From Vulcanimicrobiota bacterium (GTDB lineage Bacteria; Vulcanimicrobiota; Xenobia; Xenobiales; JADMJV01), in contig JBFWNU010000012.1 of NCBI GenBank assembly GCA_050250895.1, forward strand, positions 32,001-96,000: a stretch of DNA of 64,000 nt, in the 5' to 3' direction. Position numbers and translations under genes: made by a program. The notes beneath the pieces were generated by a model. The model worked only from the letters and a program-made list of their open reading frames with translations. It was not told the DNA's origin and ran no database searches. Shown piece by piece: positions 1,586 to 31,304 of the stretch. Within the stretch, counting starts at the first letter, position 1; each line of letters opens with the position of its first letter.

Positions 1586-1628
1586 AGTCTAGCGCCTCGG
1601 CCCGACCAGCATGTTGATAAAAGGTTTC
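1586..1628 (-). promoter_or_regulatory. Shared promoter motif copy 1 (GAAACC-N4-ATCAAC-N21-TAGACT)
   Basis: Same geometry as copies at 6402, 29864 and 31261; most degenerate copy. Confidence 0.5.
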
Positions 1629-1630
1629 CG

Positions 1631-3316
1631 TCAGCCCGCCTGTTGTTTCTTGACCATCTTGGCCCAGGCGTCTTTGAGGGTCACGACGCGATTCATGACC
1701 AGCTTGTCCATGGTGGCGTCGGGGTCGACCACGAAATAGCCCTTGCGTTCGAACTGGAAGCGATCGCCCGGTTGGGCCGACTTCATACTGGGCTCGAGAC
1801 GTGCCTGCACCACCTCGAGCGAGTCGGGATTGAGAAACTCGGTGTAGTCCCGGTCTTTCTGGCCGTCGGGGCGTTCGACCGTGAAGAGCCGATCATAGAG
1901 GCGCACCTCGGCCTCCAAGGAGTGGGCGCAAGACACCCAGTGGATGGTGCCCTTGACCTTGCGCCCATCGGGGGTCGAGCCGCCGCGACTTTCGGGATCG
2001 TAGTGACAGCGCAATTCGACCACGTTGCCCTGGTCGTCTTTGACCACCTCGTCGCAGGTGATGTAGTAGGCCCGTCGCAGCCGTACTTCGCGGCCCGGCG
2101 CCAGGCGAAAGAACTTCTTGAACGGCTCTTCCATGAAATCTTCTCGCTCGATATAGATTTCGCGGCTGAAGGGCACGTCGCGAAAACCCATCTTGGGCGG
2201 ATCGTCAGGGTAGAAGGGAGCCTCCATGAACTCGACCTTGTCCTCAGGATAGTTGGTGATCACGACTTTGAGCGGGTCGAGTACCCCCATGACTCGCGGT
2301 GTCCGGGTGTTGAGGTCGTTGCGAAGGCACTCCTCAAGCAGCGAAAGCTCGATCCAGCTATCATTCTTGCTGACCCCGATCTTGTCGCAGAAGTCGCGAA
2401 CCGCCTCGGGCGTGTAGCCCCGGCGACGCATCCCCTGAATCGTGGGCATGCGAGGGTCATCCCAACCGGCCACCGTGCCCGTCTTCACCAGTTCGAGCAG
2501 CTTACGCTTGCTCATCACGGTGTAATAGAGGTTGAGGCGGGCGAACTCGATCTGTTGGGGGTGACACGGCACGTCGAGCTGATCCAGGCACCAGTCGTAG
2601 AGCGGGCGGTGGTTCTCGAACTCGAGGGTGCAGATGGAATGGGTGATCTCTTCCAGGGCGTCCGACACGCAGTGCGTGTAGTCATACATCGGATAGATGC
2701 ACCACTGGTCGCCGGTGCGGTGATGGGCTACCTTGCGAATGCGGTAGAGGGCCGGGTCGCGCATGTTGATGTTGCCTGAGGCCATATCGATTTTGGCGCG
2801 CAAAGTCCGCGACCCGTCTTCAAATTCACCGGCTTTCATGCGGGTGAACAGGTCCAGGTTTTCTTCGATGCTACGATCCCGATAAGGGCTGGGGCGGCCG
2901 GGTTGGGTCAGGGTGCCCCGATATTGGCGAACTTCCTCGGCCGACAGATCGCAAACGTAGGCTTTGCCCTGTTTTATCAGCGAAATGGCATAGTCGTAGA
3001 GCTTCTGGAAGTAGTCGGAAGCATGGTACAGGTGTGGTCCCCAGTCAAAGCCGAGCCAGCGGACGTCGTCCTTAATCGCGTTGACGTACTCGACGTCTTC
3101 CTTGGTGGGGTTGGTGTCGTCGAAACGCAGATGGCAGCGACCCTGGTGTTCGGCGGCCAGGCCGAAGTTGAGGCAGATCGACTTGGCGTGGCCGATATGC
3201 AGATAACCGTTGGGCTCGGGCGGAAAGCGGGTAACGACCTGATCGTGTTTGCCGCTGGCCAGATCTTCAGCCACGATAGTCCGAATGAAGTTGGGGGTCA
3301 GGGGGTCGGTTGCCAT
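1631..3316 (-). CDS. glnS: Glutamine--tRNA ligase
   Basis: [14 protein letters not shown] (HIGH) and MSKR motifs; start set at MATDPL. Confidence 0.97.
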
Positions 3317-3393
3317 AGGCTGGCAGGCTTCGCAGGCGGACAGCGATCTCCTTGTGCCAGGGTAAGCTGGTGGACCGTCGAAGCCCGGCAATT

Positions 3394-4476
3394 ATGGCCT
3401 TGCCCATCTCGCTACCCATCGAGCGAGTCCACCTCGAGGTGACCAATCAGTGCAACTTCGACTGCGCCTTCTGCCCCGACCACAAGATGCAGCGCCCTCG
3501 GGGCCGCATGACCACCGAGCAGGCGCGTCAACTGCTCGAAGAGATGGCCAGCCACGGCCTGGCCCGGGAGGTCCGCCTCCATTTGATGGGCGAGCCGTTC
3601 CTCCATCCCCATTTGTTCGAGATTATCGAAGCCGGCGCCGAACTCGGCCTGCACCTGAGCCTGACCACCAACGCAAGTTTGCTGGCTCCCCGAACCATTC
3701 AGGGTTTGCTGGCCAGTCGCCTGGGCGAATTGGTGGTCAGCCTGCAGACCCCCAGCCGACAAAGCTTCGCCATACGCTATCCACCCCCGAAGCTCACCTA
3801 CGAGGTCTTTCGCAAGAAGGTGCTGGCTTTGCTCGAGGCGGCCCTGGCGGCCAAAATGCCCTTTCCCATCAACCTCAATTTCCTCAACACCACCCGTCGG
3901 GGGCTGATAGGACCGCTTCGCGAGCCGATCGACTCGCTCTCGGGCGACCAGCCGACTCGCGAGGCTCTGGGTCTGTGGGCCCGTGAGGTTTACGCCCTGA
4001 CCGGCGACACCGGCGACTTGCCCAAGGTGCTCACGCACCTCGACCGGATATCGGTGGCCCGCTGGGAGACTCTGGAGGTCTATCCTCGCATCTTTTTCGA
4101 GGTCCGACCGCTGTTTGACTGGGGCAATGCCTGGACCCCGCCGGGTGAGTTGCGGCCGGCTCGCTACGGGACCTGCAACGCCGTTTACGGTCAACTGGGC
4201 ATCCTCTACAACGGGGACGTCGTTCTTTGTTGTGCTGACTATGACGGCAGTACCACCGTCGGCAACGCCCTCGAGGAAGGCCTGGTGGAGGTGCTCAAGA
4301 AGCCCGAGGTGGCAAGCATCGTCGAGGGCTTTCGCCGCAACCGGGTGGTCCATCCGCGCTGTCAGCAATGCCTGGGCGGAGCCACCCGAACCGCCGCCCT
4401 GGCCCGCCAGTTGGGATCAATTTTGTTCTTCAAAGGTCCCGGTCGCCACTTTCAGCGAACCACCCGTCTGTACTAG
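3394..4476 (+). CDS. Radical SAM protein with SPASM/twitch domain
   Basis: CNFDCAFC; C-terminal C..GDVVLCC..GN..CQQC. Confidence 0.9.
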   Translation: MALPISLPIERVHLEVTNQCNFDCAFCPDHKMQRPRGRMTTEQARQLLEEMASHGLAREVRLHLMGEPFLHPHLFEIIEAGAELGLHLSLTTNASLLAPRTIQGLLASRLGELVVSLQTPSRQSFAIRYPPPKLTYEVFRKKVLALLEAALAAKMPFPINLNFLNTTRRGLIGPLREPIDSLSGDQPTREALGLWAREVYALTGDTGDLPKVLTHLDRISVARWETLEVYPRIFFEVRPLFDWGNAWTPPGELRPARYGTCNAVYGQLGILYNGDVVLCCADYDGSTTVGNALEEGLVEVLKKPEVASIVEGFRRNRVVHPRCQQCLGGATRTAALARQLGSILFFKGPGRHFQRTTRLY

Positions 4477-4478
4477 TC

Positions 4479-5222
4479 ATGAAGCACTTCCTCAAAAACA
4501 TCGTCACCCATGTCAAGCGCCTGGTGAGAAAGCGCGGCAAGAATCTGGACCAGAAACGCCAGATGACGCGGCTGGTGTGTCGCATCCCGGTGGTGTGCGA
4601 GGTGGAGGGTAAGACCTTTCAGGCTTTCGCCATCGATCTGGGGGTGCGTGGGCTGCGCCTGGAAGTGCCCACCAAGGTCGCCCCCGGGGCTGTCCTGGGG
4701 GTAGCCTATCGCCCCGACTCAGGACCTCCGCCACCCAAACTGGTGGCCAAGGTTCGCTGGTGCCGGCGGCGGGCCAATTCGAGCGTCATCGAATCTGGGC
4801 TCGAGTATCTCGAGACCGACGAAGTGCTCACCGGCTCCTGGGTCAAGATGCTGCTCGACGAGGTGGGTTTTCGCGAAGAGGCGGTGTTTGACCGGCGGCG
4901 GAGCTATCGCACCCACGGCAGCCTGCGGGGCCGTATCCTCACCCACGGGGGCGGCAACTACTTTGGGAATGTGGCCAATCTGGGCGTAGGCGGCGCTCTG
5001 TTCGAGGTCTCCAAAGCCCTCTCGCCCGGGGCTCCGGTCGAGGTCGAGGTAGGTCCCGCTCAGGGGATGGAGTTGCTTAAACTGCAGGGTCGGGTTCGCC
5101 ACGCCCGCCGCTCGGATCGCGATGGCCGCTGGCTCAACGGAGTGGCCTTCACCGAACTCGATGCCCGGTCGACCGAACTGTTGGGCAAGTATATCTTTCT
5201 GTTGTTGCGAGAAGCCGAGTAG
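4479..5222 (+). CDS. Tandem PilZ-domain protein
   Basis: Two RxxxR + (D/N)xxxxG sets (RQMTR..DLGVRG; RRSYR..NLGVGG). Confidence 0.82.
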   Translation: MKHFLKNIVTHVKRLVRKRGKNLDQKRQMTRLVCRIPVVCEVEGKTFQAFAIDLGVRGLRLEVPTKVAPGAVLGVAYRPDSGPPPPKLVAKVRWCRRRANSSVIESGLEYLETDEVLTGSWVKMLLDEVGFREEAVFDRRRSYRTHGSLRGRILTHGGGNYFGNVANLGVGGALFEVSKALSPGAPVEVEVGPAQGMELLKLQGRVRHARRSDRDGRWLNGVAFTELDARSTELLGKYIFLLLREAE

Positions 5223-5225
5223 CCA

Positions 5226-6302
5226 GTGCTGGCCTACTACATCACCGCCCACGGCTACGGTCACGGGGCCCGCTCTTGCGATATCCTCGAACGCCTCTGG
5301 CAGACTCGGCCGGAGCTTGATTTGACGGTCGTGACCGACCTGCCCGACTGGTTTCTGGCCAACCGCCTGTCGCGGCGGCCCCTGTCGTTGCGGCGGGCTC
5401 GCTTCGACGTGGGGATGGTGCAGAAGGATTCGGTCGAGGTCGATCTGGCCGAAACCCTGGCCCGGTTGGAAGAGGTTTTCCGTCAACGACCGCAACTGGT
5501 AGCCCGCGAGGCCGAGTGGCTAAGGGCCAACCAGGCCCGGGCGGTGGCGGTCGACATCCCCTCTATGCCGTTGGAGGCGGCCGCCAGGGCGGGCATTCCC
5601 GGCGTGGCCGTAGGCAACTTCTCGTGGGACTGGATCTACGCCGAGTTGGGCTCATCCGAGTTTGAGCCGGTGATTGACGCCTTGCGCCAGGGCTACTCCC
5701 AGGCAGAAAAGTTGTTGCGCCTGCCTTTTAGCTGCCCCACCGAGGCCTTCTCGCGGACCGTCGAGGTGCCTTTGGTGGCCACCCCTGGCCAGAATGTGCG
5801 CTCGGCCCTGGCCGCTGCCACCGGGGCTGATCCCGACCGGCCCTGGCTGCTGTTTTCCTTCACCACGCTCAATCTCGAGCCTGGAGCTATCGAGCGCCTT
5901 AGCCGTCTTGACGGCTACCAATTGCTGACGGTTCGCCCCCTGGAGTGGGCGGGCCCGAATTTCTTCTCGGTCGACCCGGCCGCTTTCCGGTTCACCGATC
6001 TGATGGCCAGCGTCGAGGCGGTGGTTACCAAGCCGGGCTTCGGCATCCTCTCCGAGGCGGTGGTCAACGACACGCCCCTGATCTATGTCGAGCGCCACGA
6101 TTTTGCCGAATACCCGGTGCTCGAGGCGGCGATCCGTGAAGCCTTGCGAGGGATCCATCTGCCCGCTCGCGACCTCTACGCCGGCCGGCTCGAATCGGCC
6201 CTCGAGCAGCTCGCGGCTGGTCTGCCGGGCCCCCGGGTGGCGGTGCCCTTTGACGGTGGGGCCGAGGTGGTCCGACAACTCGTGGAACTACTTGGCGGCT
6301 GA
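5226..6302 (+). CDS. GT-B fold glycosyltransferase-like protein (L-arabinokinase N-domain-like)
   Basis: YYITAHGYGHGAR, GNFSWDWIY, VTKPGFG..SEA motifs. Confidence 0.75.
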   Translation: MLAYYITAHGYGHGARSCDILERLWQTRPELDLTVVTDLPDWFLANRLSRRPLSLRRARFDVGMVQKDSVEVDLAETLARLEEVFRQRPQLVAREAEWLRANQARAVAVDIPSMPLEAAARAGIPGVAVGNFSWDWIYAELGSSEFEPVIDALRQGYSQAEKLLRLPFSCPTEAFSRTVEVPLVATPGQNVRSALAAATGADPDRPWLLFSFTTLNLEPGAIERLSRLDGYQLLTVRPLEWAGPNFFSVDPAAFRFTDLMASVEAVVTKPGFGILSEAVVNDTPLIYVERHDFAEYPVLEAAIREALRGIHLPARDLYAGRLESALEQLAAGLPGPRVAVPFDGGAEVVRQLVELLGG

Positions 6303-6401
6303 GGGAAGCCGGCTTCGACGTGCGCCCACGCTTGACCGCGGACCCCGCGACCCGCGGTTGATTTTCTCTCGCCGCAGGTACTTCGACAGCGCGCCCCGAC
6401 G

Positions 6402-6444
6402 TTAACGAGTCGGTAACCTCGCCAGATCCCCCTCAGGTTAGCCT
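6402..6444 (+). promoter_or_regulatory. Shared promoter motif copy 2 (TTAACG-N4-GGTAAC-N21-TAGCCT)
   Basis: Direct half-sites 10 bp apart; -10 hexamer 8 nt before ATG 6453. Confidence 0.65.
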
Positions 6445-6452
6445 GGACGGGC

Positions 6453-8138
6453 ATGCTCATCCGGTCTCTTCATAGGCCCGCCCCGGCGGTTCCCAAGGCT
6501 CCCGCCAAGCCCCAGCCCAGTTATGGTCGCGAGGACCGCATCAGCTACTTCGTGCAGCAATTGGGGGCCGAGGCGGTGACTCAGGTGCGCCACCTTTCCG
6601 CCGCCTACGCCGGCCAGATGATCGCCACCACCGCCGGAGTGCTGGCCCTGGCCCCCCTGGCCGAATCGCTGGGCCAGATTCACGTCTTGACCATCGGGGG
6701 TACGCTGGCCGCGGGGATAGGAGCCGTGGCCGGCTACTACCTCGAACGTTCGCGAGGCCTCAAGCCGGTGACTCCAGGGCTCGATGGGGTCGGTCAGGCG
6801 GCCGCCACCCTGCGTAGCCTGCCAGACTTTGTCTACCCGACCATCGTCAACGCCACTGCGGCCGAAACCGAGCTGATTAACTCCACTCTCGACACCCTGC
6901 CGATGGGGGACGTGACTTCGGTCTCGACCATGACGGTCATGCCCGATATGGGCCCCATGGGCATCTCGGGAGTGGCCCCGCCGGGGCTGAGCCAGAACCT
7001 GGTCTACTTCGACCGCAAGCACCTCGGCTACAGCTGGTTCAATCGCGAGTTGGTGACCCACGAACTGGCTCACGGCAAGGACCTCTCGGCCGGCTACGGT
7101 CCGATCGGTACTCACAGTATCCGGGGGGGCGGTTTCGGGCGGGCTCCCTTCGTGTCCCACTACGCCGGCACCAACTTCCTGGAAGATTACGCCGAGTCGT
7201 ATGTCGAGTTTCATCAGCATCCCGACCGCTTGCGTGAGCTGGCTCCTCGAAAATACGCCGCTCTCGAGGCGGCGGACCCCAAAGGAGTCGAAGAGTGGCT
7301 CACCGATCGTCCCCAGGTTCGCGACCTGGGCAAGCAGGTGGCCGAGACGATCGGGCAGGTTCCTTACGCTCGCAACGCCCTGGAGTTGGCCGGAGCTTTG
7401 ATCGCGCCCTGGCAGATGCACCGCGGAGCCACCCAGATCGAGTCGGGCCAGCGACTGGCCGGCAAGCTCAACCTGGCTTCGGGCTTCTTTCTGGCGTCGG
7501 GAGCGTCGGCTCCCCTGGTGCTGGGCGTGTCGGCCATCGGCCTGGCCCAGAACGAGCGCCTGGCCGACATCACCCTGGCGGGCTCGTTGGGGCCGCTGGG
7601 CATGATGGGTCTGGCCGTCACCGATCAGTTGACCTCGGAGGGGGTCGATCTCAGCCAACAGTTTCAGGGGGTCAAGCTTGACGGCGAGCGCAACCTGGGT
7701 GCACTCTGGCTAGCCCTCACCGCCTCGGGAGTCGGCGGTGTGGTGGGGGCGGTGGCCGGCGCTCATTTTGGCGGTGTGGCCGGCGCTCTCTCGGGCTCCG
7801 CCCTGGGTTCTCTCACCGGTGGAGCCCTGGGAATGGGCGCCTATGTGGTGGACAAGGTCCGCCACGGAGCCCCGGCTACCGGCCCCCTGGCCTTGACCCG
7901 AGAGGACAAGTGGCATTTGGCCAAATTGGCCGGCGGTGGCCTGGTCGGCGGAGTGGCTGGGGGTCTGGCCGGGCATTGGGTTGGTCAGGCGGTGGGCTCG
8001 GCGCTGGGTTCGCTGGCCGGTCCATTGGGGGCCGAGGTGGGCGGTTCGGTCGGCGGCTGGGCCGGCACCCTGGCCGCCGCGTATGGTGGAGCCCGCCTGG
8101 GCTCGAAAATCAGCTCAGCAATTGGTCCAGCAGAATAG
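6453..8138 (+). CDS. Zinc metallopeptidase-domain protein with long Gly-zipper hydrophobic regions
   Basis: THELAHG (HExxH) plus VSHYAGTNFLEDYAESY; GxxxG-rich C-terminal ~200 aa; Pro-rich N-terminus. Confidence 0.75.
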   Translation: MLIRSLHRPAPAVPKAPAKPQPSYGREDRISYFVQQLGAEAVTQVRHLSAAYAGQMIATTAGVLALAPLAESLGQIHVLTIGGTLAAGIGAVAGYYLERSRGLKPVTPGLDGVGQAAATLRSLPDFVYPTIVNATAAETELINSTLDTLPMGDVTSVSTMTVMPDMGPMGISGVAPPGLSQNLVYFDRKHLGYSWFNRELVTHELAHGKDLSAGYGPIGTHSIRGGGFGRAPFVSHYAGTNFLEDYAESYVEFHQHPDRLRELAPRKYAALEAADPKGVEEWLTDRPQVRDLGKQVAETIGQVPYARNALELAGALIAPWQMHRGATQIESGQRLAGKLNLASGFFLASGASAPLVLGVSAIGLAQNERLADITLAGSLGPLGMMGLAVTDQLTSEGVDLSQQFQGVKLDGERNLGALWLALTASGVGGVVGAVAGAHFGGVAGALSGSALGSLTGGALGMGAYVVDKVRHGAPATGPLALTREDKWHLAKLAGGGLVGGVAGGLAGHWVGQAVGSALGSLAGPLGAEVGGSVGGWAGTLAAAYGGARLGSKISSAIGPAE

Positions 8139-8751
8139 CCAGCTCGGAACTCTGCTCTTGGCTCAGTTCGGTGAACTCGACCCCGTAGAGAAACGAGTTG
8201 CGCCGGTTCCACGAGCGAAGCACCCGCCCCTCGAGCTTCTCCAGTCGTCGAGGCGAACTCAAGCTCAAGCGCACGTCGGCGTTCATGGCCAGGCGCGAGC
8301 GGCACGAGATCAGGGCCCCCCCGATTCCGATGTTGAGAATCGAACCTCGCTCGGCATCGTTGCCACGTTCTATGATTCCACTGAGCTGGCACGGCACGCG
8401 AATGGTCTGGCGTCGCTCGAGCACCTCGCCGTTGGTGATATCGACTCCGGCGAGAACCGAAGCGGCCCAACTGTTCCAGAACGTCGACAGCCGGTGAGGA
8501 TAGGATAGACCCAGACGATAGCGGGCTCCCAGCTCCTGGGTCCACTCGACCCGGTATTCGACTGGCTCGAAGTCGCCCTCGACTTCGGGCACCAGGGTCA
8601 CCAGGCCGGCCCGGTTCACTGGCTGACGGCACATCACACTGGCCCCGCCGAGCCCCAACTCGTGAAGCATCCCGGTCTGCGGCTGACCCTCATGCTCGAG
8701 GGTCACGGCCAGATTGCAGATGACGCGAGCGAACAGCCGGCGGTTCTTCAT
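8110..8751 (-). CDS. Tandem PilZ-domain protein
   Basis: RLFAR..ELGLGG and RQTIR..NIGIGG; ATGA overlap with rhodanese gene. Confidence 0.82.
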   Translation of the reverse strand: MKNRRLFARVICNLAVTLEHEGQPQTGMLHELGLGGASVMCRQPVNRAGLVTLVPEVEGDFEPVEYRVEWTQELGARYRLGLSYPHRLSTFWNSWAASVLAGVDITNGEVLERRQTIRVPCQLSGIIERGNDAERGSILNIGIGGALISCRSRLAMNADVRLSLSSPRRLEKLEGRVLRSWNRRNSFLYGVEFTELSQEQSSELAILLDQLLS

Positions 8752-9212
8752 TCGGCTTGCTTCGGACTGGCCGCCGGGCCTTCCCCCAGAGTGGGCAGCC
8801 CCGCCTCTTGCCAGGCCCCAAAGCCGGCCTCCATCACCACCGTTTGTTCGAGACCCAGGCGACGCAACAACAAGCCCAGCTGGCGGGCCTGGCCGCAATC
8901 GGGTCCCGAGCAATAGATCACCACCCGAGAGGCTAATTGCAAGCGGGCTAGCGTCTCGGGAGAGGGCTCGGCCGGCAGCGAGATGGCTCCCCGCACATGG
9001 CCCTGGCGAAACTCGGCGCTCGAGCGGGCGTCGACGAAGACGGCTCCCTCAGCGTAGAGCGCCCCGGCCTGCTCGAGCGTCACGCTGCCCACCTCGCTTT
9101 GATAGGCGGCAAACAGCGGATGGCTGGTGTCGAAATGGCGACCCCACAAACCCAGGGTGACGGCCATCGTGAAGATAGCCACGGCTCCGATGAGCATGTC
9201 CGAGCGACTCAT
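8748..9212 (-). CDS. Membrane-anchored rhodanese-like protein
   Basis: FVDARS..F..GHVRGA, IYCSGPDC; N-terminal TM. Confidence 0.85.
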   Translation of the reverse strand: MSRSDMLIGAVAIFTMAVTLGLWGRHFDTSHPLFAAYQSEVGSVTLEQAGALYAEGAVFVDARSSAEFRQGHVRGAISLPAEPSPETLARLQLASRVVIYCSGPDCGQARQLGLLLRRLGLEQTVVMEAGFGAWQEAGLPTLGEGPAASPKQAE

Positions 9213-9928
9213 CGCAAGACCCGTCCGACCACCGGCACATACAACCAGGGCAATTCGAGGCAGGTGGTCTTGATCGAGAGATTGCCGGTGATGCTTTGCT
9301 CTCCCTCGGGAGCGGCGAAAACCTCGATAGTATAGCCATCGGCACCCTTCTCCAGCGGGCCCAGGCGAAGCCCGGGAGCGTTGCTGCTGACCTCGATCGG
9401 CAGACAGCGCTGGGGCTGGTTGGGCAGGATGGTGAGGGTCACGCTGGTGGGAAAGCCAGGGCGAACGTCGTCAAAAGTGACCACCTCGGGGTCGACGGCC
9501 AGGAGCGGGTCTACCACGGTGGTCAGATCCAGGCGGGCCGGGTCGGAAGCCAGACTGTGAAAGACCAGAATGGTTTTGGTGATCCGTCCTTGCATCAAGG
9601 CCGTGTCGAGGCTCACGGTCAGTCGGGTCGTCTCGCCCGGCTCGAGATGAGTTTTTGCCAGACTGGCCTGGGTGCAGCCGCAGCCCGCCTCGACCTCGCC
9701 AATGTCGAGGGACCGAGAGGCCAGGTTTTTGACCTCTACAATGGCTGACTCGAGGCTTTTCTGATAGGTGCGGCCGAAGTCGACCTGGGCGGGCGAGAAA
9801 GAAAGATAGGGGTCGGGCGGGCGCGAGACGGCGGTGGTCGGACCTGGTTCGCTATACCAAAGGCTGAAGTTGAGCAGCCAGCCGATGGCGATGGCCCACA
9901 GCAGGCCTCGGCGCAGGCCGGGTCTCAC
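9209..9928 (-). CDS. DUF1573-like Ig-fold protein
   Basis: AGCGCT..LEPGE motif; N-terminal TM; GTGA overlap start. Confidence 0.75.
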   Translation of the reverse strand: MRPGLRRGLLWAIAIGWLLNFSLWYSEPGPTTAVSRPPDPYLSFSPAQVDFGRTYQKSLESAIVEVKNLASRSLDIGEVEAGCGCTQASLAKTHLEPGETTRLTVSLDTALMQGRITKTILVFHSLASDPARLDLTTVVDPLLAVDPEVVTFDDVRPGFPTSVTLTILPNQPQRCLPIEVSSNAPGLRLGPLEKGADGYTIEVFAAPEGEQSITGNLSIKTTCLELPWLYVPVVGRVLR

Positions 9929-10119
9929 TCTTCCTCTTCGAAGACCTCGTGGTGGTGGCGCTTTTTGAGCTTGCGGCTGAGCACAACACACACCGTGCCG
10001 GGGTCGTTGCCGTTGAGGAAATGGATCGCTTTATAGCCCGAACCGGCCAACTGGTTGAGAACCGCCTCGAGCTCGTCGAAATTGGTCATGACGGTCTTGT
10101 ATTCCAGAACCTTGCTCAT
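9925..10119 (-). CDS. Small DUF4177-like protein
   Basis: EYK..LE..LN.L...GY pattern; overlaps both neighbours by 4 nt. Confidence 0.65.
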   Translation of the reverse strand: MSKVLEYKTVMTNFDELEAVLNQLAGSGYKAIHFLNGNDPGTVCVVLSRKLKKRHHHEVFEEEE

Positions 10120-23572: not shown

Positions 23573-23602
23573 AGGTCACACCTTTCCGAGAATTCCACTC
23601 CG

Positions 23603-23646
23603 AGAATAGCACGAACCTACCATCTCAGGCAGTGAAGTGGTTCACA
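23603..23646 (-). promoter_or_regulatory. CRP-like site TGTGA-N6-TCACT, N22, then -10 TATTCT
   Basis: 9 of 10 match to TGTGA-N6-TCACA in a divergent intergenic region, at class II-like spacing. Confidence 0.55.
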
Positions 23647-23690
23647 AAAGGTCCGTTTCCGATCGTCATTACGAGGGTAGAAACCCCAAT

Positions 23691-23951
23691 ATGGAAGAGT
23701 CCTTGATGGAGTTTCCCTGCTCGTTCCAGGTCAAGGCGATGGGGCTGGCGGGGGAGGATTTTGTTGAGCACGTGGTGGCGCTGGTGCGTTCCCACATGGC
23801 CAGCCACGAGCCACACGAGGTGAGTTCGCGGCCCAGTAGCGCCGGCAAATACTGGTCGGTGACGGTCACCATCGAGGCTCAGAGTCGCGAACAGATCGAT
23901 CGCATCTATCAGGATCTCACCGACTCGGCCCTGGTGCTCTACGCTCTATAA
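23691..23951 (+). CDS. YbeD/DUF493 family protein
   Basis: EFPC.F.VK.MG..SSAGKY.SVT..IY..L. Confidence 0.88.
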   Translation: MEESLMEFPCSFQVKAMGLAGEDFVEHVVALVRSHMASHEPHEVSSRPSSAGKYWSVTVTIEAQSREQIDRIYQDLTDSALVLYAL

Positions 23952-24941
23952 CCAGCGCATGACCAGGGCGCACCAGGCTAGTCCGCCCCCGAATCCAACC
24001 GTTACCACGATATCGCCCGAGTGGATGCGGCCCTGGCGTTGCGCCTCCCAAAGGGCCAGCGGCACCGACCCGTTGGAGGTGTTGCCGTAACGGTCGACGT
24101 TGGTAAACACCCGGTCCATGGAGATGTTGAGCCGGCGAGCGGCTGCTTCGATGATTCTAAGGTTGGCCTGGTGGGGGATAAACAACGAGACTTGCTCGGG
24201 CGCGATGCCAGATTTCTCCAACGCCTGAATCGAGGCTTCGCCCATGGCCTGGACCGCGAACCGATAGACGCCACGCCCGGCCATATGGATGCAGTGATCG
24301 GTGCGCTCCTGGCTGGGTGCTCCGGCCCCGGCCGGAATGCGAAGAAGGTCGCCCCCACTGCCGTCGGCTCCGAAGTGAAAGCCAAGGATGCCGCTACCCT
24401 CCGGAACCGGGCCGAGCACGGCGGCTCCGGCGGCGTCTCCGAATAAAACACAGGTGGAGCGGTCGTCCCAATTAGTGATTCGTGACAGGGTGTCGACCCC
24501 CACCACCAGCACCCGCTTGTAGGTTCCGCTGGCCACGAACTGTTGCCCGACGCACAGGGCATAGGTAAAACCCGAGCAGGCAACCGAAAGGTCGAAGGCG
24601 CCGGCCCGAGTGGCTCCCAGGCGTTGTTGGATTCGGCAGGCGGTAGAAGGCATAGGCGAATCGGGGGTAAGGGTCGCCACGATGATGAGTTCGATCTCTT
24701 CAGGGCTCAACCTGGCCTGCTCGAGGGCCTGTTGCGCGGCTGTGAAGCCGAGGTCCGAAGAGCACAGCCCGTCGGGCGCGATGCGTCGCTCACAGATGCC
24801 GGTGCGCGAGCGGATCCACTGGTCGGAGGTGTCGACCCGGGCTTCGAGTTGGCTGTTGGAAACGATCTGGTCGGGAACGCAGTGGCCAAGTCCCAGGATG
24901 CCGACCGGGGCGAGTCGGACTCTAGTCATCGTGGCTGGCAT
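23946..24941 (-). CDS. fabH: Beta-ketoacyl-ACP synthase III
   Basis: Catalytic ACSGF, PHQAN, GNTS; GFGGGL. Confidence 0.95.
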   Translation of the reverse strand: MPATMTRVRLAPVGILGLGHCVPDQIVSNSQLEARVDTSDQWIRSRTGICERRIAPDGLCSSDLGFTAAQQALEQARLSPEEIELIIVATLTPDSPMPSTACRIQQRLGATRAGAFDLSVACSGFTYALCVGQQFVASGTYKRVLVVGVDTLSRITNWDDRSTCVLFGDAAGAAVLGPVPEGSGILGFHFGADGSGGDLLRIPAGAGAPSQERTDHCIHMAGRGVYRFAVQAMGEASIQALEKSGIAPEQVSLFIPHQANLRIIEAAARRLNISMDRVFTNVDRYGNTSNGSVPLALWEAQRQGRIHSGDIVVTVGFGGGLAWCALVMRWL

Positions 24942-24950
24942 GAAATTCGT

Positions 24951-25349
24951 TCAGGCTCGATCCGGTGAGGGGAACTGGGCGCCGAGCTGGGTAAGACTCT
25001 CTCGCAGGTTGTCGGCCGAGTGGCTCCAGCCGAGGGCCGCGTCGACCCTACCCGATTCGAGGTCGCTCTCGACATCTTTGAGGATGCTGAGCTTGCGCGT
25101 AATCGTGTTGCGAATACGTTCCATTTTGCGCTCTTCGGGAGTCTCGGCGTTAGAAGTGCCGCCGGCCTGCCCGCCACCCGGGAAGCGGAAACTCAAGAAC
25201 TGCTCGGAGGAAGGGCCGAACAGCACCCGCAGGGTCTTGAGCACTACATCGTTCCAGCTGGAATATTCGTCTTCGTCAGCGGTTGCCAGCAGATTTTCAC
25301 CAAGCTGAATGGTCTGGCGCAGCAGGTCTATCGCTTTCATTTCTTGCAT
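24951..25349 (-). CDS. Hypothetical helical protein
   Basis: ORF directly upstream of fabH; start approximate (MQEMKA). Confidence 0.6.
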   Translation of the reverse strand: MQEMKAIDLLRQTIQLGENLLATADEDEYSSWNDVVLKTLRVLFGPSSEQFLSFRFPGGGQAGGTSNAETPEERKMERIRNTITRKLSILKDVESDLESGRVDAALGWSHSADNLRESLTQLGAQFPSPDRA

Positions 25350-25375
25350 TGGTCGAGTCCTGGATCGGTTTAGAT

Positions 25376-26173
25376 ATGCAATTGAATCACAACCAGAAAA
25401 TTCCTGCAGAACACGGCCGGCAGTTGACCATGGTCTCAATGATGGCAGCCAACTTCAGCGGTGCTTGTCGGAAGATCTCTCAACGGTTCGGAATTTCCTT
25501 CCTGGACGATCCCGATTGGACCGAACATCGGCGCGCCCTGGTCGAGGGGCGAGCTGGCCTGGCCGCCCTGTGTGGACTGGTCTACATTCAGTGGTCACAG
25601 CCACTGGAACTGCTAGCCGCTCCCGTGCCGACCGGCGACAAGTATGGGGCAGGGCCCATCTATTTCTCTGAGGTGGTGGTGACGGCCGACTCTGGCTTGA
25701 CCAGTTTTGAGGACCTGACCGGGCGGAGCCTGGCCATCAACGAGCCGGGCTCGCACAGCGGCTGTGCCATTGTCGGCTACGAATTGGCGCGGCGTGGGTT
25801 GAGCACCGATTTCCTTGGACCTGTTGTGCAGTCAGGCGGTCATCGGGCTTCACTGGCTCTGATAGCCGCGGGAAAGGTGGATTGGGCCGCCATCGATTCG
25901 ACCGTCTTCGACTATTGGTCCCAGCGAGAACCGGAGCTTTTTGCCCGCCTGCGCAGCCTGACCCGGCTGGGGCCGAGCCCCCATCCGCCCCTGGTAGCTC
26001 AGGGGCTGGCCCCGGACCGAGTGGCCAGTCTGCGGGAACAGTTTTTGAGCCTTCCCCCTGACTTTCTGACGGAATTCGGTTATCAGGGCCTGGCCCAGGT
26101 GACCGACGCCGATTATGACCGGCTGCGAGAGATGGCACGGATGGCGGCTACTTGCTGGCCGGTTCGAGGGTAA
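25376..26173 (+). CDS. PhnD/SsuA-like substrate-binding-fold protein, no signal peptide
   Basis: CGL.Y, Y.S.VVV, N..S.SG, SGGH.AS, D.AAID; start uncertain. Confidence 0.78.
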   Translation: MQLNHNQKIPAEHGRQLTMVSMMAANFSGACRKISQRFGISFLDDPDWTEHRRALVEGRAGLAALCGLVYIQWSQPLELLAAPVPTGDKYGAGPIYFSEVVVTADSGLTSFEDLTGRSLAINEPGSHSGCAIVGYELARRGLSTDFLGPVVQSGGHRASLALIAAGKVDWAAIDSTVFDYWSQREPELFARLRSLTRLGPSPHPPLVAQGLAPDRVASLREQFLSLPPDFLTEFGYQGLAQVTDADYDRLREMARMAATCWPVRG

Positions 26174-26200
26174 CGGCCGACCCGAAGGGAACACATCCGG

Positions 26201-27040
26201 ATGGAAAACTTTCTTCGTTTTCGGGGGACAGACCGCTATTTGACCAATTCGGCCCTGGAGGCGGCCGTCAACTGCGCCCTGGCGCTCGAGAAGCCCCTAT
26301 TGGTGAGGGGCGAGCCCGGAACCGGCAAGACTTTGTTGGCCGAAGCCGTGGCCGAAGGGCTGGGCCTCGAGCTGGTTCGCTGGCATGTCAAAAGCACCAC
26401 CCGGGCCCAGGATGGTCTCTATGTCTACGACACGGTGCAGCGCTTGTACGACTCGCGTTTCGATGACCGCAACGTGCATGACATCAGGCAATACATCAAA
26501 CTGGGGCCGCTGGGACAGGCGTTCTCGGCTCCCTCGCGGGTGGTGCTGCTGATCGACGAGATCGACAAGGCCGATATCGAGTTTCCCAATGATCTGCTTC
26601 ATGAGCTCGACCGGATGCGGTTTCGCATCACCGAGACCAACGAACTGGTCGAAGCCAAAGAGCGACCCATCGTGATAATTACTTCCAACAACGAAAAGGA
26701 GCTGCCCGATGCGTTCCTGCGGCGTTGTGTCTTTCACTTCATCGACTTTCCCGAGCCCGAATTCATGCGCGAGATCGTCGAGGTCCATCATCCCGGGTTG
26801 GACCAAGAACTGGCCCGCCAGGCCATGGAGGCTTTCTTCGGCTTGCGCGAGTTGCCCCGCCTTCGTAAACGGCCCAGCACCAGCGAACTGATCGACTGGA
26901 TCTCGGCGCTCAAGGCGGCCGGCATCGAGCAGGTCACCCTCGAGCCGGGCATGCCGTTCCTGGGCACACTGCTCAAGAAAGAGCAAGATCTGGCCACCCT
27001 GGCCGAGCATGTCACGCGCCGACCCGGCTGGCGCAACTGA
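26201..27040 (+). CDS. MoxR-family AAA+ ATPase
   Basis: GEPGTGKT, LLIDEIDKAD, LPDAFLRRC. Confidence 0.93.
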   Translation: MENFLRFRGTDRYLTNSALEAAVNCALALEKPLLVRGEPGTGKTLLAEAVAEGLGLELVRWHVKSTTRAQDGLYVYDTVQRLYDSRFDDRNVHDIRQYIKLGPLGQAFSAPSRVVLLIDEIDKADIEFPNDLLHELDRMRFRITETNELVEAKERPIVIITSNNEKELPDAFLRRCVFHFIDFPEPEFMREIVEVHHPGLDQELARQAMEAFFGLRELPRLRKRPSTSELIDWISALKAAGIEQVTLEPGMPFLGTLLKKEQDLATLAEHVTRRPGWRN

Positions 27041-28227
27041 TGTTCGTCCCTTTTCTTTACGAACTACGGTCGCGCGGGGTGCCGGTCGGGACTCAAGAGG
27101 CCGTGGCCCTGGCCGAGGCTCTCAAAAAAGGGCTTCACCAGAGTTCGCTGGACGGCTTCTACCACATCTCCAGGGCCCTGATGGTCCACTCGGAGGCTCA
27201 TCTGGACGCCTTCGACCAGGCTTTCTTGCATCACTTTCATGGGGTCGAACTGGCCGCCACGGCCCTCCATCAGGACCTGCTCGACTGGCTTCGCGACGCC
27301 CTCGATCGCATTCCAGAGCTGACCCCCGAAGAGAAGGTCTTATTCGACCTGCTCGACTTCGACGAACTCAAGAAGATGTTCGATGAACGTCTCGACGAGC
27401 AGAACGAGCGCCACGACGGAGGCGATCGCTTCATCGGCACCGGCGGTAAATCGCCTTTCGGCCACAGTGGAGCCCCGCGACCCGGCTTTCGTATCGGCGG
27501 CCGCTCGCGCAACCGGCGAGCCATGCAGGTGGCCGAGCAACGCAATTTTCGCGACTATCGCAGCGACCGCATCCTCGACGTGCGCCAGTATGCGGTGGCC
27601 TTGCGCAAGCTGCGCACCTTCGGTCGCGAGGGCAACGAGGAAGAACTCGACATCGACAAAACCATTTCGGCGACCGCCGACAACGCCGGCGAACTCGAGA
27701 TCGTCACCCGCCCGCCGCGGCGCTCCAATGTGCGGGTCATCCTCATGATGGATGTGGGCGGCACGATGGATCCTTTCACCCAGCAAGTCGAACAGCTCTT
27801 CTCGGCGGCCGCCAAAGCCACTCACTTCAAGGAGTTCCACGCCTTCTACTTTCACAACTGCGTCTACGACTCGGTCTACAAGACGGCCCGTTTTCGCAAT
27901 CCCGTGCCTGTCGACGAGATCCTGGCCCGCTACGGCAAGCACTACAAGCTGATCATGGTGGGGGATGCGATGATGGCGCCGTATGAGCTGGTCGCTCCCA
28001 AGGGCGCGCTGTTCTTCGGCTACGAGGGCAAACGCTCGGGACTAGAATGGCTACAGGCCCTAACCGACCATTTCCGCAAAGCCATCTGGCTCAATCCCGA
28101 GCCTCCTCGCTATTGGAGCGGCCGCACCCTGCACGAAATCCAGAAACTCTTCCCCATGTTCCCCCTCACCCTGGAAGGCCTCGACCAGGGCATCGCCCAC
28201 CTGGTAAAGGGAAGAGGGCGGGCCTAA
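27040..28227 (+). CDS. VWA (CoxE-like) partner protein
   Basis: DVGGTM MIDAS-like motif, VGDA.M.PYE, WLNP; coupled to MoxR. Confidence 0.88.
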   Translation: MFVPFLYELRSRGVPVGTQEAVALAEALKKGLHQSSLDGFYHISRALMVHSEAHLDAFDQAFLHHFHGVELAATALHQDLLDWLRDALDRIPELTPEEKVLFDLLDFDELKKMFDERLDEQNERHDGGDRFIGTGGKSPFGHSGAPRPGFRIGGRSRNRRAMQVAEQRNFRDYRSDRILDVRQYAVALRKLRTFGREGNEEELDIDKTISATADNAGELEIVTRPPRRSNVRVILMMDVGGTMDPFTQQVEQLFSAAAKATHFKEFHAFYFHNCVYDSVYKTARFRNPVPVDEILARYGKHYKLIMVGDAMMAPYELVAPKGALFFGYEGKRSGLEWLQALTDHFRKAIWLNPEPPRYWSGRTLHEIQKLFPMFPLTLEGLDQGIAHLVKGRGRA

Positions 28228-28244
28228 CAACTACCGTCTGAAGA

Positions 28245-29828
28245 CTACCCCCACAAGGGCAGTTTGAGCTGGCCGTTGTCGTCGGGCTGCTTGTTGCGCT
28301 GGATGGCCAGGCTGAGGGCTCGGTCGGGATTGATCATGCCGGCGCCCTGGCTTTCGCTGCGATAGGCGGGCATCGGGGTAGCGCTGTCGCGCAGGATTTC
28401 TTTGACTTCGGCGGGCGTAAGGTGGGGGTTGGCTTCGAGCATCTCGGCCACCACGCCGGCCACGATGGGAGCAGCCATCGAGGTGCCGGGCATGCCGATG
28501 TAGTCGGTCTCGACCATGGGCAGGCGCTCGGTGGCCTCGAGCAGGTGATCAAGTTCCTGGCGGGCGTGGCTGGGGCTCTTGTGAAAGCGCACGATCGAAC
28601 TGCCGTTGAGGCCGATCATTCGCAGAGTCGGGGCCGGCACGTTGACTAGCTCGGAATCGGGCATCTTCTGCAGCCAGTCGAGGGTGCGGTGCACATCGGT
28701 GTATTTACGGGCGGTGGCCTCGAGCACCGAGTTGGGGGCGTTGGGGCCGATAATGCCTTCGCCCGGGGCTACCAGGTCGGGCTTGGAACTGCCCGCCTCG
28801 CCTCGACTCGAAAACGACGGGATCCGGTCGTCGGAGCGGTCAGGGGTGTTGCGGTCGTCGACAGCGCCGACGGTGATGACCGAGGGGCTGTCGCCGGGGC
28901 TCGAGATGGTGCCCAGTTCTGGACCCTGGTTGCCGGCCGAGACCACCACCACGATGCCCTCTTCGACGGCTCTTTCCACGGCCTTGCGAATGGGGTCGTT
29001 GGTCGAGCGGGCCGAGGTGTCGCCGGTGCCTAGAGAAAGATTAATGACGCGAATGTTATACCGTGCCTTGTTCTCGACCGCCCAGTTCAGGCCCTGAAGG
29101 ATGCGCGAGGTGCTGCCGCGGCCACTCTTGTCGAGCACTTTGACGCCGATCAGGTTGGCGTCGGGGGCGGTGCCCCGGTGGATCCCACCCGAGAGAAAGC
29201 CCGAGCCGGCGGCGTCGCCGGCCACGTGGGTGCCGTGGCCGTTGTCGTCGTAAGGTACCGATTTGCCATTCACGAAGTCTTGAAAGGCCACAATGCGCTG
29301 ATGGGGGTAGGCCAGGTCGGGATGAGGATAAATGCCGGTGTCGATGACGGCGATGCCCACTCCTTTGCCGGTGTAGGTTTGGGTTAGCGGGGTGAGAAAT
29401 CGCGGGTTCTCGAGGGGTTGCCGGGGACCTGGCGGGGGGGCGACCGGACCGTCGGCCGATCGTTGCTGCTTGCGCTCCCACGGCTCGGGATGAAGAAACG
29501 TCTCTTCGTCGTTGGGGATGGCTTCGAAGCCGGCCTTTTCGGCCAGTTCGCGATTAGCCTGGTTCATGACGGCGGTAAAGCCTTTGACCAGGGGAATCTG
29601 TTCGTCGACCACGATGTTGAGTCGGGCCAGCCGGGCGGCCAGTCCTTCGGGGCCGACCGATTGCAGCGCCTCGGGGCTGGGGACCAGCAGGTAGGGGTCC
29701 TGGCGCTCGTCGGTGCCCTCGACCAGATTGGCCGAAAAAATGGGCTCATTCAGGGGGAGGTCCATCTGGCGCTCGACCCGGCGGGGAGCGAACAAGTGGC
29801 GTTGCGATTGGATGGAGCCTACGAGCAC
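28245..29828 (-). CDS. S8 subtilase (AprX-like, no signal peptide)
   Basis: IDTG, HGTHVAG, SAGN, GTSMAAP; GTG start after GGAGAAAGGA. Confidence 0.9.
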   Translation of the reverse strand: MLVGSIQSQRHLFAPRRVERQMDLPLNEPIFSANLVEGTDERQDPYLLVPSPEALQSVGPEGLAARLARLNIVVDEQIPLVKGFTAVMNQANRELAEKAGFEAIPNDEETFLHPEPWERKQQRSADGPVAPPPGPRQPLENPRFLTPLTQTYTGKGVGIAVIDTGIYPHPDLAYPHQRIVAFQDFVNGKSVPYDDNGHGTHVAGDAAGSGFLSGGIHRGTAPDANLIGVKVLDKSGRGSTSRILQGLNWAVENKARYNIRVINLSLGTGDTSARSTNDPIRKAVERAVEEGIVVVVSAGNQGPELGTISSPGDSPSVITVGAVDDRNTPDRSDDRIPSFSSRGEAGSSKPDLVAPGEGIIGPNAPNSVLEATARKYTDVHRTLDWLQKMPDSELVNVPAPTLRMIGLNGSSIVRFHKSPSHARQELDHLLEATERLPMVETDYIGMPGTSMAAPIVAGVVAEMLEANPHLTPAEVKEILRDSATPMPAYRSESQGAGMINPDRALSLAIQRNKQPDDNGQLKLPLWG

Positions 29829-29863
29829 CTGAAGTCCTTTCTCCCCCTCGAGCAATTTCCACG

Positions 29864-29906
29864 ATGCTAACAAGCGGGCCGAGAAGGGATGTTGCCACTT
29901 TGTTAA
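29864..29906 (-). promoter_or_regulatory. Shared promoter motif copy 3 (TTAACA-N4-GGCAAC-N21-TAGCAT)
   Basis: Same geometry as the other three copies; overlaps the TPR gene stop codon. Confidence 0.65.
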
Positions 29907-31117
29907 ACTGGCGCTTCGGGGTCTTCTAAGGGGCTGTCCTCATCGGGCTCTGGTGAGGGGGGCTGGGGCGGAGCAGGCATGGGCAGGCACAGTTCTTCGG
30001 GGGCCAATTTCCAGACGCTGGCAAGCTCGCGAAAGCGCTCCCGCACCATCTGGAGATCTTCAGTGACGGCGGCCAGAAAGCGGTGGCGGGCCTGCAGCAG
30101 GTCGCCCTGTAAGAGCCGGCACTGACCGTAGCCGTAGCTGGCTTCGAACAGCTTCTCGAAGCGCTTGAGAGCCTCGCCGAAATAGGTTTCGGCCGCCGGC
30201 AGATGGCCCAGCAGCTGCTCGCTGCGACCCAGATAGTAGAATACGTAGGGGTTAGGACCATCGCGCTTCCACGAGTCGAGCAACAGCTCGGAGGCCTCCG
30301 CCAGACGATCCCGCAGGTAGGGCTCGGACTCTTTTGGCCGCGAAGAGAACAACAAGCTCTCGGCCAGGTGGAAAGCGCCCCGGAACATGTGAGGGTCCAG
30401 AGTGTGGGCTTTGCGCTGGTACTCGATGGCTTGCTCGCAGAGTTCGACGCGTTGCTCAGGGTCGCGTTGGCGCATCGCCTTTTCGAGGCGGCTCTGGCCG
30501 CGTCGCTGGCTGCCCATGGCTTGGAGCGAAGGAACGAAGTTCGCCAGGGCCTCGACCAGGCCCGGCTCCGCGAGAGTGGGGCGAGCTTCGAGTTCTTCCT
30601 CGCTGAGAGCCTCGCGGTAAAACAGTTGGGGAATGTCCCGGGGCAAGAGGGCCAGTTCGGTTTCCACCACCAGGCGGCCCAGCAGGGCGTTGCATGCGAT
30701 CAGTTCCGCAGGGTGGGCGCCCTCGACCAGACCCAGGTGGTGGCAAACCTCGCCGATGTTTTTGTCTTTGAGACTAAGAAAGGCTCGCAGGCAGGGCAGT
30801 TGCTGGTTGCGAGGCTCGAGTTGGGCGGCCCGCTCGACACTTGCTCGGGCTGCCTCGAGGTCGTCGAGGTCGGCCAGGGCCAGGCTCTTGAAGATGGGCG
30901 CGGCCGGGTTTTCGGGGGCCCGCTCGAGAGCTCGCTCGAAGTCTGCCAGGGCCTCTTCGGCTCGCCCTAGATCGAGATAAACCAGGCCGCGCTGCAGGCA
31001 GGGTCCCGGATGGTCCGCCAGGCCACTGACGGCCTCGGCGAACAGCTCCAAAGCCTGTTCGGGGTCGCCTCGACGGGCCAGGTTCTGGGCTCGAGCGAGC
31101 ACACTCCAGGTTGCCAT
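29903..31117 (-). CDS. Tetratricopeptide-repeat protein
   Basis: Several TPR units (RG.VY..LGR.EEALADFERAL..P; YYLG..LG..AE.YF). Confidence 0.85.
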   Translation of the reverse strand: MATWSVLARAQNLARRGDPEQALELFAEAVSGLADHPGPCLQRGLVYLDLGRAEEALADFERALERAPENPAAPIFKSLALADLDDLEAARASVERAAQLEPRNQQLPCLRAFLSLKDKNIGEVCHHLGLVEGAHPAELIACNALLGRLVVETELALLPRDIPQLFYREALSEEELEARPTLAEPGLVEALANFVPSLQAMGSQRRGQSRLEKAMRQRDPEQRVELCEQAIEYQRKAHTLDPHMFRGAFHLAESLLFSSRPKESEPYLRDRLAEASELLLDSWKRDGPNPYVFYYLGRSEQLLGHLPAAETYFGEALKRFEKLFEASYGYGQCRLLQGDLLQARHRFLAAVTEDLQMVRERFRELASVWKLAPEELCLPMPAPPQPPSPEPDEDSPLEDPEAPV

Positions 31118-31260
31118 GCTCTTAGGATGCCTCGTGGCAGCGAGAATTTCCTGGTTCAAGTTCTTTTCAGGGCGATGAAGTAGTCTCGACGGGTCGAGGG
31201 TTAGCACGCTTGTGAGACCAGCTGCAGAGGCTGATCGCAGTGGCCTGCTTTGGTGGCGTG

Positions 31261-31304
31261 TTAACATTTTGGCAATAAAGGTATGCAGACTTTCATGCTA
31301 GGAT
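31261..31304 (+). promoter_or_regulatory. Shared promoter motif copy 4 (TTAACA-N4-GGCAAT-N22-TAGGAT)
   Basis: -10 hexamer 9 nt before ATG 31314; no SD. Confidence 0.65.

Follow-up and report, generated by a model that had tools for sequence, protein, structure and literature searches.

Four promoters in a 64,000-nucleotide stretch of the genome of a Vulcanimicrobiota bacterium (assembly GCA_050250895.1, contig JBFWNU010000012.1, positions 32,001 to 96,000; the whole stretch is referred to as the window) are probably ordinary members of a very large activator-dependent regulon. They precede the genes for an orphan protein, a 561-aa protein with an HExxH motif, a subtilase and a SecA paralog, and are built of 2 GTTAACA-like heptads in an 11-bp phase, located 20 to 21 bp before a TAnnnT −10 box and without a −35 hexamer, an architecture hereafter referred to as class A. 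The first-pass annotation of the window had proposed a small regulon of 4 unlinked genes. Scanning of both strands of the 9.5-Mb, 99.6%-complete genome placed the 4 sites among approximately 250 to 300 class A promoters, in addition to approximately 290 promoters of a second type (class B); the earlier interpretation is right in kind and wrong in scale. The motif, its spacing, enrichment and conservation as well as the content of the target set are observed, and activator binding, transcript starts, co-expression and export are what we infer in this analysis. All 4 promoter sequences are present in the window on the strands and at the coordinates originally reported for them:

1586..1628, − strand: class A promoter site 1, GAAACC-tttt-ATCAAC, 21 nt, TAGACT; ATG 10 nt past the −10 box; matrix score 22.7
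6402..6444, + strand: class A promoter site 2, TTAACG-agtc-GGTAAC, 21 nt, TAGCCT; ATG 8 nt past the −10 box; matrix score 27.0
29864..29906, − strand: class A promoter site 3, TTAACA-aagt-GGCAAC, 21 nt, TAGCAT; candidate TTG start 8 nt past the −10 box; matrix score 28.0
31261..31304, + strand: class A promoter site 4, TTAACA-tttt-GGCAAT, 22 nt, TAGGAT; ATG 9 nt past the −10 box; matrix score 34.0

The common architecture of the 4 promoters is real and non-random, as judged from spacing-controlled genome counts, provided that the half-site formula is corrected. The motif had been written as AAC-N7-AAY-N21/22-TAGNNT, and the actual gap between the half-sites is 8 nt (e.g., TTAAC-G-agtc-GGT-AAC). 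In a grid of AAC-Nx-AAY-Ny-TAGNNT patterns (x = 3 to 12, y = 14 to 29), the N7 version yields 6 + 5 matches genome-wide, which is the background level, and the N8 version 19 + 12 = 31 matches, 3 to 4 times the background, with the other 158 cells holding 0 to 12. A sharper consensus, TTAACA-N4-GGCAAC, emerged from the 31 N8-spaced matches, and TTAAC-N5-GGYAAY occurs 25 times, compared with 0 to 9 times at other gaps. The half-sites are direct repeats one helical turn apart (11-bp phase), as had been suggested, and occupy the place of the absent −35 hexamer. By contrast, the G of TAGNNT carries no special meaning, being merely the commonest third −10 base in these promoters; TAGTCT is also used by the rRNA promoter P2.

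The same signal is evident in further genome-wide counts. TTAACA is the top-enriched hexamer in 4,775 upstream regions (12.9-fold), and downstream of its 689 genomic copies TANNNT occurs 48 times at 31 nt and 28 times at 32 nt, vs 0 to 10 times at most other offsets, which is the enrichment at a fixed distance from the −10 box that the annotation had proposed to look for. Minor peaks lie at 40 to 43 nt (10 to 22 occurrences, one turn further) and at 20 nt (15 occurrences); 17 nt shows none. A position matrix built from sites including the 4 window sites and refined 4 times detects 296 sites at spacers of 21/22 nt vs 30 to 61 at 8 control spacer pairs, 145 vs 4 to 10 per control spacing at scores ≥22, and 45 vs 0 to 2 at scores ≥26. 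Its consensus, g-TTAACA-wnyy-GKYAAC-a, represents 2 versions of one heptad, the proximal one often being GGCAAC or GTTCAC. The sites avoid coding sequences: 268 of the 296 are in non-coding DNA, which accounts for only approximately 10% of the genome, and 264 have a gene start on the same strand within −30 to +400 nt (genes were predicted with a home-made gene caller, which called 89.5% of the genome genic). Site 4, preceding the SecA paralog gene, ranks first among the 296; the presence of the window sites in the training sets makes their scores slightly too favourable. Special clustering of sites in the window was considered and rejected, since approximately 2 sites are expected per 64 kb (296 in 9.5 Mb) and the 4 to 5 seen are not unusual.

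Palindromic versions, TTAAC-N5-GTTAAC, are found with sites on both strands at C1:1476288, C1:1894644, C1:2117778, C1:2798243, C3:51390, C4:760432 and C5:258875. These may serve divergent promoters or form a separate operator.

The class B promoters were found in a sample of genes starting 6 nt after TANNNT and have the form TTCAG(G)-N5/6-TTCAG-N10-TANNNT. The corresponding matrix detects 297 sites at a spacer of 10 nt and 7 to 25 at 11 other spacings. Consistently, TANNNT follows TTTCAG 143 times at 10 nt and 100 times at 21 nt, compared with 5 to 21 times at most other offsets, and TTCAG-N6-TTCAG occurs 88 times vs 5 to 13 times at other gaps. The repeats, TTTCAG(G), end 10 nt before the −10 box, rather than 20 to 21 nt as in class A. 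Counted from the −10 box, class A has the core TT[AC]A[CG] beginning at −37 and −26, and class B has it beginning at −26 and −15; therefore, the 2 classes are in the same phase, one turn apart. Twelve genes, including that of the SecA paralog, where the 2 are in tandem, carry both. No −35 signal or conserved −35 columns were detected in either class.

Housekeeping promoters of the same organism look different. Upstream of the only 16S rRNA gene stand TTGACA-N17-TATACT and TTGACA-N17-TAGTCT, and the rRNA operon promoters contain no class A or class B site. Thus, the organism has an Escherichia coli-like −35/−10 consensus, and the use of canonical TTGACA-N17 by the rRNA operon implies that classes A and B are specialised. 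Many start codons are close to the −10 box: genome-wide, 362 predicted starts have TANNNT exactly 6 nt upstream and 102 have it 7 nt upstream, with 35 to 77 at background offsets. The first in-frame start lies 6 nt past the −10 box in 51 of 264 class A targets and 7 to 10 nt past it in 34 more; starts at 5 to 8 nt account for 71 of the 253 class A targets and 142 of the 270 class B targets. This spacing fits a transcript start approximately 7 nt after the −10 box, with transcripts that would be leaderless or carry very short leaders. A second peak of Shine–Dalgarno-like cores, seen in the whole genome approximately 28 to 32 nt before predicted starts, probably derives from starts called approximately 8 codons too short.

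The proteins encoded downstream of the 2 promoter classes share an unusual N-terminus. Target N-termini were read from the first start codon in frame downstream of the presumed transcription start, and identical rules were applied to the controls. The leader begins with M-x-I/V-x-S/T/P, followed by a Pro-rich stretch poor in acidic residues, often with D-x-V-x-L-S. The pattern is present in 97 of 253 class A targets (38%) and 119 of 270 class B targets (44%), compared with 419 of 7,534 pseudo-sites (5.6%) and 5 of 121 canonical-type promoters (4%), and the second motif, D-x-V-x-L-S, is likewise enriched (25/97 and 34/119 vs 31/414). The targets contain on average 0.44 to 0.51 acidic residues at positions 2 to 13, compared with 1.17 in controls, and 10% rather than 5.5% Pro. 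A hydrophobic segment within the first 40 residues is rare (5.9% of class A and 3.3% of class B targets vs 26% of pseudo-sites and 17% of canonical-type promoters). An artefact of leaderless mRNAs could be ruled out, since genes with an mRNA leader and a ribosome-binding site show the pattern too (52/141 and 30/91 targets vs 229/4,183 controls); being equally common in both kinds of genes, the pattern is therefore a feature of the protein. No Pfam or NCBIfam model covers the leader region. A profile hidden Markov model of the leader was weak (22 open reading frames at E ≤ 0.001), and the simple pattern with controls was preferred.

Type III secretion signals are rich in Ser, Thr, Pro and Ile, contain few acidic residues and are non-hydrophobic. 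The leader composition, with low acidic content, high Pro and few hydrophobic segments, was set beside these generally known properties, and the targets may be substrates of such a system.

The annotated part of the target set is dominated by hydrolases and proteins without recognizable domains. We compared with Pfam 59 of the top 60 pattern-bearing class A targets (the 60th, the 561-aa protein of the window, was scanned separately), of which 17 belong to peptidase families and 26 match no family. The peptidases include 5 subtilases, 4 clostripain-like proteases and one each of M64, M36, M14, M13, S9, calpain, C92 and a C39/AvrRpt2-like peptidase. Among the other members of this set are a GDSL lipase and another lipase-type hydrolase, an animal-type haem peroxidase, an amidase_3 plus SLT protein, a GHL10 glycosidase, an amine oxidase, 3 PD40 propellers and an adenylate kinase. 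A further 38 class A targets without the leader pattern comprise 17 with no family, 2 subtilases, M20 and M61 peptidases, 2 PTP-like phytases, an endo/exonuclease-phosphatase, VanY, an EF-hand protein, 2 PilZ proteins and a FliK-like protein. None of the 59 + 38 annotated targets is a DNA-binding regulator. In the case of the epimerase and pseudouridine synthase matches among these 97, the site overlaps the start or sits inside coding DNA, and both targets are probably false.

Export genes are also part of the set. The genome encodes 2 full-length FlhA proteins (C1:585691-587613 and C1:1458965-1460971) and 8 stand-alone paralogs of the FlhA C-domain; relatives have from 1 to approximately 10 such cytoplasmic C-domain paralogs. 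One flhA is located in a cluster with flagellin and further flagellar genes (the latter judged from predicted N-termini alone), which contains no class A or class B site. The second lies in a complete flagellar-type core cluster encoding FlgB, FlgC, FliE, FliF, FliG, FliH, FliI, FliJ, an SLT transglycosylase, FliK, a rod/hook-like protein, FliM, 2 FliN, FliO, FliP, FliQ, FliR, FlhB and FlhA, and lacks flagellin in its vicinity. Within this second cluster, the flgB-like gene (score 27.5) and the flgG-like rod/hook gene (25.4) each have a class A site upstream. The SecA paralog of the window is likewise an additional copy, the canonical SecA being encoded elsewhere (C1:1062779-1065115). The guess made in the annotation that the motif marks an export or attack programme fits this content of proteases, nucleases and export genes.

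Large-genome families of the order retain both kinds of promoter, and the small-genome family has almost none of them. The large-genome families are f1, f2 and f4, the last being of the same taxonomic class, and f3 comprises small genomes. A strict class A pattern was found in 10 of 12, 1 of 4 and 0 of 4 genomes of 3 families of the order, with 0 matches of the reversed control in all 21 genomes, and a strict class B pattern in 12 of 12, 4 of 4 and 1 of 4, with up to 56 copies per genome. When 121 genomes of the phylum were scanned with a stricter version of the class B pattern, it was present in all f1 (15/15), f2 (5/5) and f4 (3/3) genomes, in 1 of 19 f3 genomes, and in 7 of 77 genomes elsewhere, with 1 to 2 matches each; the reversed control gave a single match in the 121 genomes.

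The association of the motif with particular genes is conserved as well. The family of the 561-aa protein occurs in 11 of 12 and 4 of 4 genomes of 2 large-genome families and in 0 of 4 of the small-genome family. At 11 of 13 loci in relatives a class A or class B site is in place, and 10 of these 11 combine a start 6 to 10 nt past the −10 box with a leader-type N-terminus (MKIQQ, MQIQT, MLIQS). Some genera use class A at this gene and others class B, and at 2 loci a single −10 box is preceded by 3 repeats. Genomes of f1 and f2 carry the SecA paralog, which was not found in the 4 f3 genomes searched; a search for related loci in other genome contigs returned only distant SecA genes in unrelated metagenome-assembled genomes. 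Of the 11 paralog loci in relatives with upstream DNA, 9 carry a same-strand site, class A in 8 cases (one approximately 500 nt away) and class B in one, and no class A or class B site was found upstream at the 2 loci of genus g3. In one relative (G002), the gene immediately behind the paralog gene (L011:3-1388, − strand) encodes the membrane part of FlhA alone (FHIPEP positions 4 to 399).

As an explanation of these observations, we propose that one or two OmpR/PhoB-type winged-helix response regulators bind the heptads head-to-tail, take the place of the missing −35 contact and recruit the housekeeping sigma-70 polymerase. With a transcript start 7 nt after the −10 box, the 18-bp class A box would be centred near −41.5 and that of class B near −30.5. 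The regulon would encode several hundred leader-bearing proteins without a Sec-type hydrophobic segment, with a cargo consisting largely of proteases, lipases, nucleases, cell-wall hydrolases, phosphatases and oxidases, and would also include the second flagellar-type export apparatus and the SecA paralog. Its most likely function is a concerted programme of export or of attack, in predation or competition. The OmpR/PhoB-type activator layout suggested by the annotation agrees with the observed geometry and with the Pho-box layout described in PMC1906773. The 19 canonical OmpR-family regulators encoded in the genome are candidates for the activator; 26 genes with an OmpR-type winged helix were mapped.

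A bolder proposal, which we put forward tentatively, is that the leader represents a new kind of export signal, by which an arsenal of more than 200 enzymes and effector-like proteins (possibly proteases, nucleases, lipases, phosphatases, calpain-like and AvrRpt2-like proteases and a haem peroxidase) would bypass the Sec signal-peptide route through the second, flagellin-less flagellar-type apparatus or with assistance from the SecA paralog, the phased heptads acting as the master switch. The flagellar-type apparatus is a candidate because it is predicted to be co-regulated and because the leader may resemble type III signals in composition. The SecA paralog is a candidate because it has the best site and a phyletic range matching that of the motif, a match which rests on 3 families whose members are not independent.

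Several observations weigh against the activator-dependent export or attack regulon proposed above. No class A site lies directly upstream, on the own strand, of any of the 26 mapped genes with an OmpR-type winged helix, and all 19 canonical OmpR-family regulators score below the NCBIfam equivalog cut-offs. The class A box stands 10 to 11 bp farther from the −10 box than the Pho-box position, and the starts at the window sites lie 8 to 10 nt past the −10 box, the modal value being 6. The matrices count sites on which they were trained, and spacing controls made with the same matrices leave some circularity. The simple N-terminal pattern is found in just approximately 40% of targets, with starts taken from the home-made gene caller. 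Finally, 2 of 4 f2 genomes carry many class B sites but only one full-length FlhA, which weakens the link to the second flagellar-type cluster.

Three other explanations were considered, each of which is less likely than a response-regulator-type activator. The first, to which we assign a low probability, is that the heptads are recognition elements of one or two alternative sigma factors, forming an extended upstream element. The strict distance to the −10 box, the very large promoter sets and the fact that no activator gene was found beside the sites all speak for it. However, the −10 box (TAnnnT/TAGnCT) does not differ in kind from that of the rRNA promoters, which have a canonical −35, and 2 direct repeats in an 11-bp phase, in 2 placements one turn apart, fit a dimeric DNA-binding protein and not a single −35 contact. 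Promoters of the sigma-70 family have spacers of 16 to 19 nt, as opposed to the 20 to 22 and 10 nt observed here. Furthermore, relatives swap class A for class B, or have 3 repeats per −10 box, within one gene family.

The second, which we judge to be somewhat more improbable still, is that class A is the Pho box of this lineage and marks a phosphate-starvation regulon under a PhoB/PhoP/SphR-type regulator. According to PMC1906773, the cyanobacterial SphR Pho box, CTTAACCT, consists of tandem 8-bp repeats with 3-bp linkers, and that of E. coli of tandem repeats with a short A/T linker, 10 bp before TAN3T. The class A half-site resembles the former and class B is placed exactly as the latter; as in Pho-box promoters, tandem direct repeats with an 11-bp period stand at a fixed distance from TAnnnT without a −35 element (PMC1906773), and the targets include 2 PTP-like phytases and nucleases. 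Class A, in contrast, lies a full turn upstream, and no match to PstS (PF12849), PhoU (PF01895) or PhoD (PF09423) was found in the 99.6%-complete genome, even though the PstS and PhoU profiles gave matches in 13 of 14 control genomes; therefore, the core of the Pho regulon is missing. Against the PhoB model, the top-scoring of the 19 regulators reaches 254.7 bits, below the cut-off of 296.2. Hundreds of promoters (approximately 250 to 550), the targets of which are mostly proteases and other hydrolases and proteins of no known family, contrast with a few dozen Pho-box promoters and with E. coli, for which PMC1906773 names at least 8 Pho operons.

The third, that the motif is a general strong or housekeeping promoter feature (UP-element-like) or a dispersed repeat rather than the mark of a regulon, accounts for the top rank of TTAACA among upstream hexamers and for its hundreds of copies but is very improbable, because the rRNA promoters use TTGACA-N17 without the motif, the targets have in common unusual protein features absent from both control sets, the only 2 clearly metabolic or RNA-modifying matches among the 97 annotated targets have misplaced sites, and the sequence between the boxes is not conserved, so that the sites are not copies of a mobile repeat.

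A regulon governed by a response-regulator-type activator finds partial counterparts in several known systems. CtrA of Alphaproteobacteria is an OmpR-family regulator that also controls flagellar genes, and the class A matrix consensus, tGTTAACAttttGTTAACAt, contains exactly its TTAA-N7-TTAAC box. Unlike in the CtrA system, the best score among the 19 regulators against the NF045991 model is 161.3 bits, compared with a cut-off of 350, and the target set differs. Accessory SecA2 systems resemble the arrangement found here in having a second complete SecA beside the canonical one and co-regulated proteins without Sec-type signal peptides. They differ in that the present paralog has a 170-aa N-terminal extension, ExbD neighbours and tandem class B and class A promoters, and no SecY2 or known type of SecA2 substrate was seen. 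In Xanthomonas, Ralstonia and Acidovorax, the PIP box or hrpII box, recognized by the AraC-type regulators HrpX and HrpB, marks export-apparatus operons together with many genes for exported effectors and has been used to find effectors (PMC6913199). Common to those regulons and the one described here is a 2-part direct-repeat box on both apparatus and cargo genes, whereas their box is TTCGB-N15-TTCGB, their regulator is of another family and their machine is an injectisome, the sole type III-like machines in the present genome being the flagellar-type clusters.

The literature searched contained nothing on this motif, regulon or leader in the lineage. Gene content and expression have led to the suggestion of predatory behaviour in one related marine family of the phylum with large genomes (PMC9259500), and the regulon, if real, would give that suggestion a testable molecular basis. 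A short DNA rule (2 heptads, 11-bp phase, 20 to 21 or 10 bp from TAnnnT) would then tag the several hundred genes that make up a single programme, in a phylum where genetics is almost absent, and yield a catalogue of candidate exported enzymes and effectors, much as PIP boxes have done in plant pathogens. It would also point to an undescribed N-terminal tag and name candidate export machines (the second flhA cluster and the SecA paralog) and candidate regulators (the 19 OmpR-type genes). Under the bolder proposal made above, a flagellar export machine or SecA would have been turned independently into a machinery for predation or attack, distinct from the known injectisomes. The regulon and the leader common to its products are the interesting part, the promoter logic being a variation of a known activator design.

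The genes behind the 4 window sites, together with 2 class B promoters and their surroundings, are as follows:

83-1153, − strand: GluR0-like gene, solute-binding domain fused to a potassium-channel pore (Pfam); overlaps the stop of the orphan gene
1150-1575, − strand: 141-aa orphan beginning with MNVQP; no NCBIfam match; found only in this genome
6453..8138, + strand: 561-aa protein with leader N-terminus MLIRSLHRPAP..., HExxH motif and Gly-rich C-terminal helices; no Pfam or NCBIfam family
28245..29855, − strand: subtilase (Peptidase_S8; Pfam 3.8e-56)
31155..31186, + strand: class B promoter before the SecA paralog gene, in tandem with site 4; TTCAA-gttctt-TTCAG, 10 nt, TAGTCT; matrix B score 28.3
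31314..34898, + strand: SecA paralog, 1194 aa; SecA_DEAD, PPXD, P-loop and wing/scaffold domains (Pfam) and a Pro-rich N-terminal extension of approximately 170 aa
34957..35711, + strand: 2 ExbD/TolR-family genes directly behind the SecA paralog gene (Pfam 3.7e-19 and 1.9e-19)
36198-37004, + strand: N6/N4 DNA methylase gene; the class B promoter serving endonuclease I starts at the base after its end
37005..37036, + strand: class B promoter, TTCAA-gaatct-TTCAG, 10 nt, TAGGCT; GTG 6 nt past the −10 box (leaderless geometry); matrix B score 31.8
37043..38038, + strand: Endonuclease I family protein with leader-type N-terminus MKVSG... (Pfam 1.9e-27)

The gene at site 1 had been described as an orphan, and it is indeed confined to this genome, with no counterpart in the 20 relatives. 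Given their overlap, the orphan and the glutamate-receptor-like channel gene form a probable 2-gene operon behind this site (83..1575, − strand). Residues 1 to 110 of the 561-aa protein yielded no usable feature match in the protein atlas. The start of the subtilase is uncertain, being either the TTG at 29855 (8 nt past the −10 box) or an in-frame GTG at 29828 located behind GGGGGAGAAAGGA, the latter having a good ribosome-binding site. As to the SecA paralog, the annotation had treated it as a unit with the ExbD pair: the pair is confirmed in the window, although it was not seen behind the paralog at the 2 annotated loci of relatives (L011 and L013), which lend no support to the pair as part of a conserved SecA-paralog module. 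A divergent gene encoding TPR repeats lies upstream of the paralog gene in the window (29903-31102, − strand) and likewise in relatives of 2 families (L013:52-1368 and L011:4895-5890).

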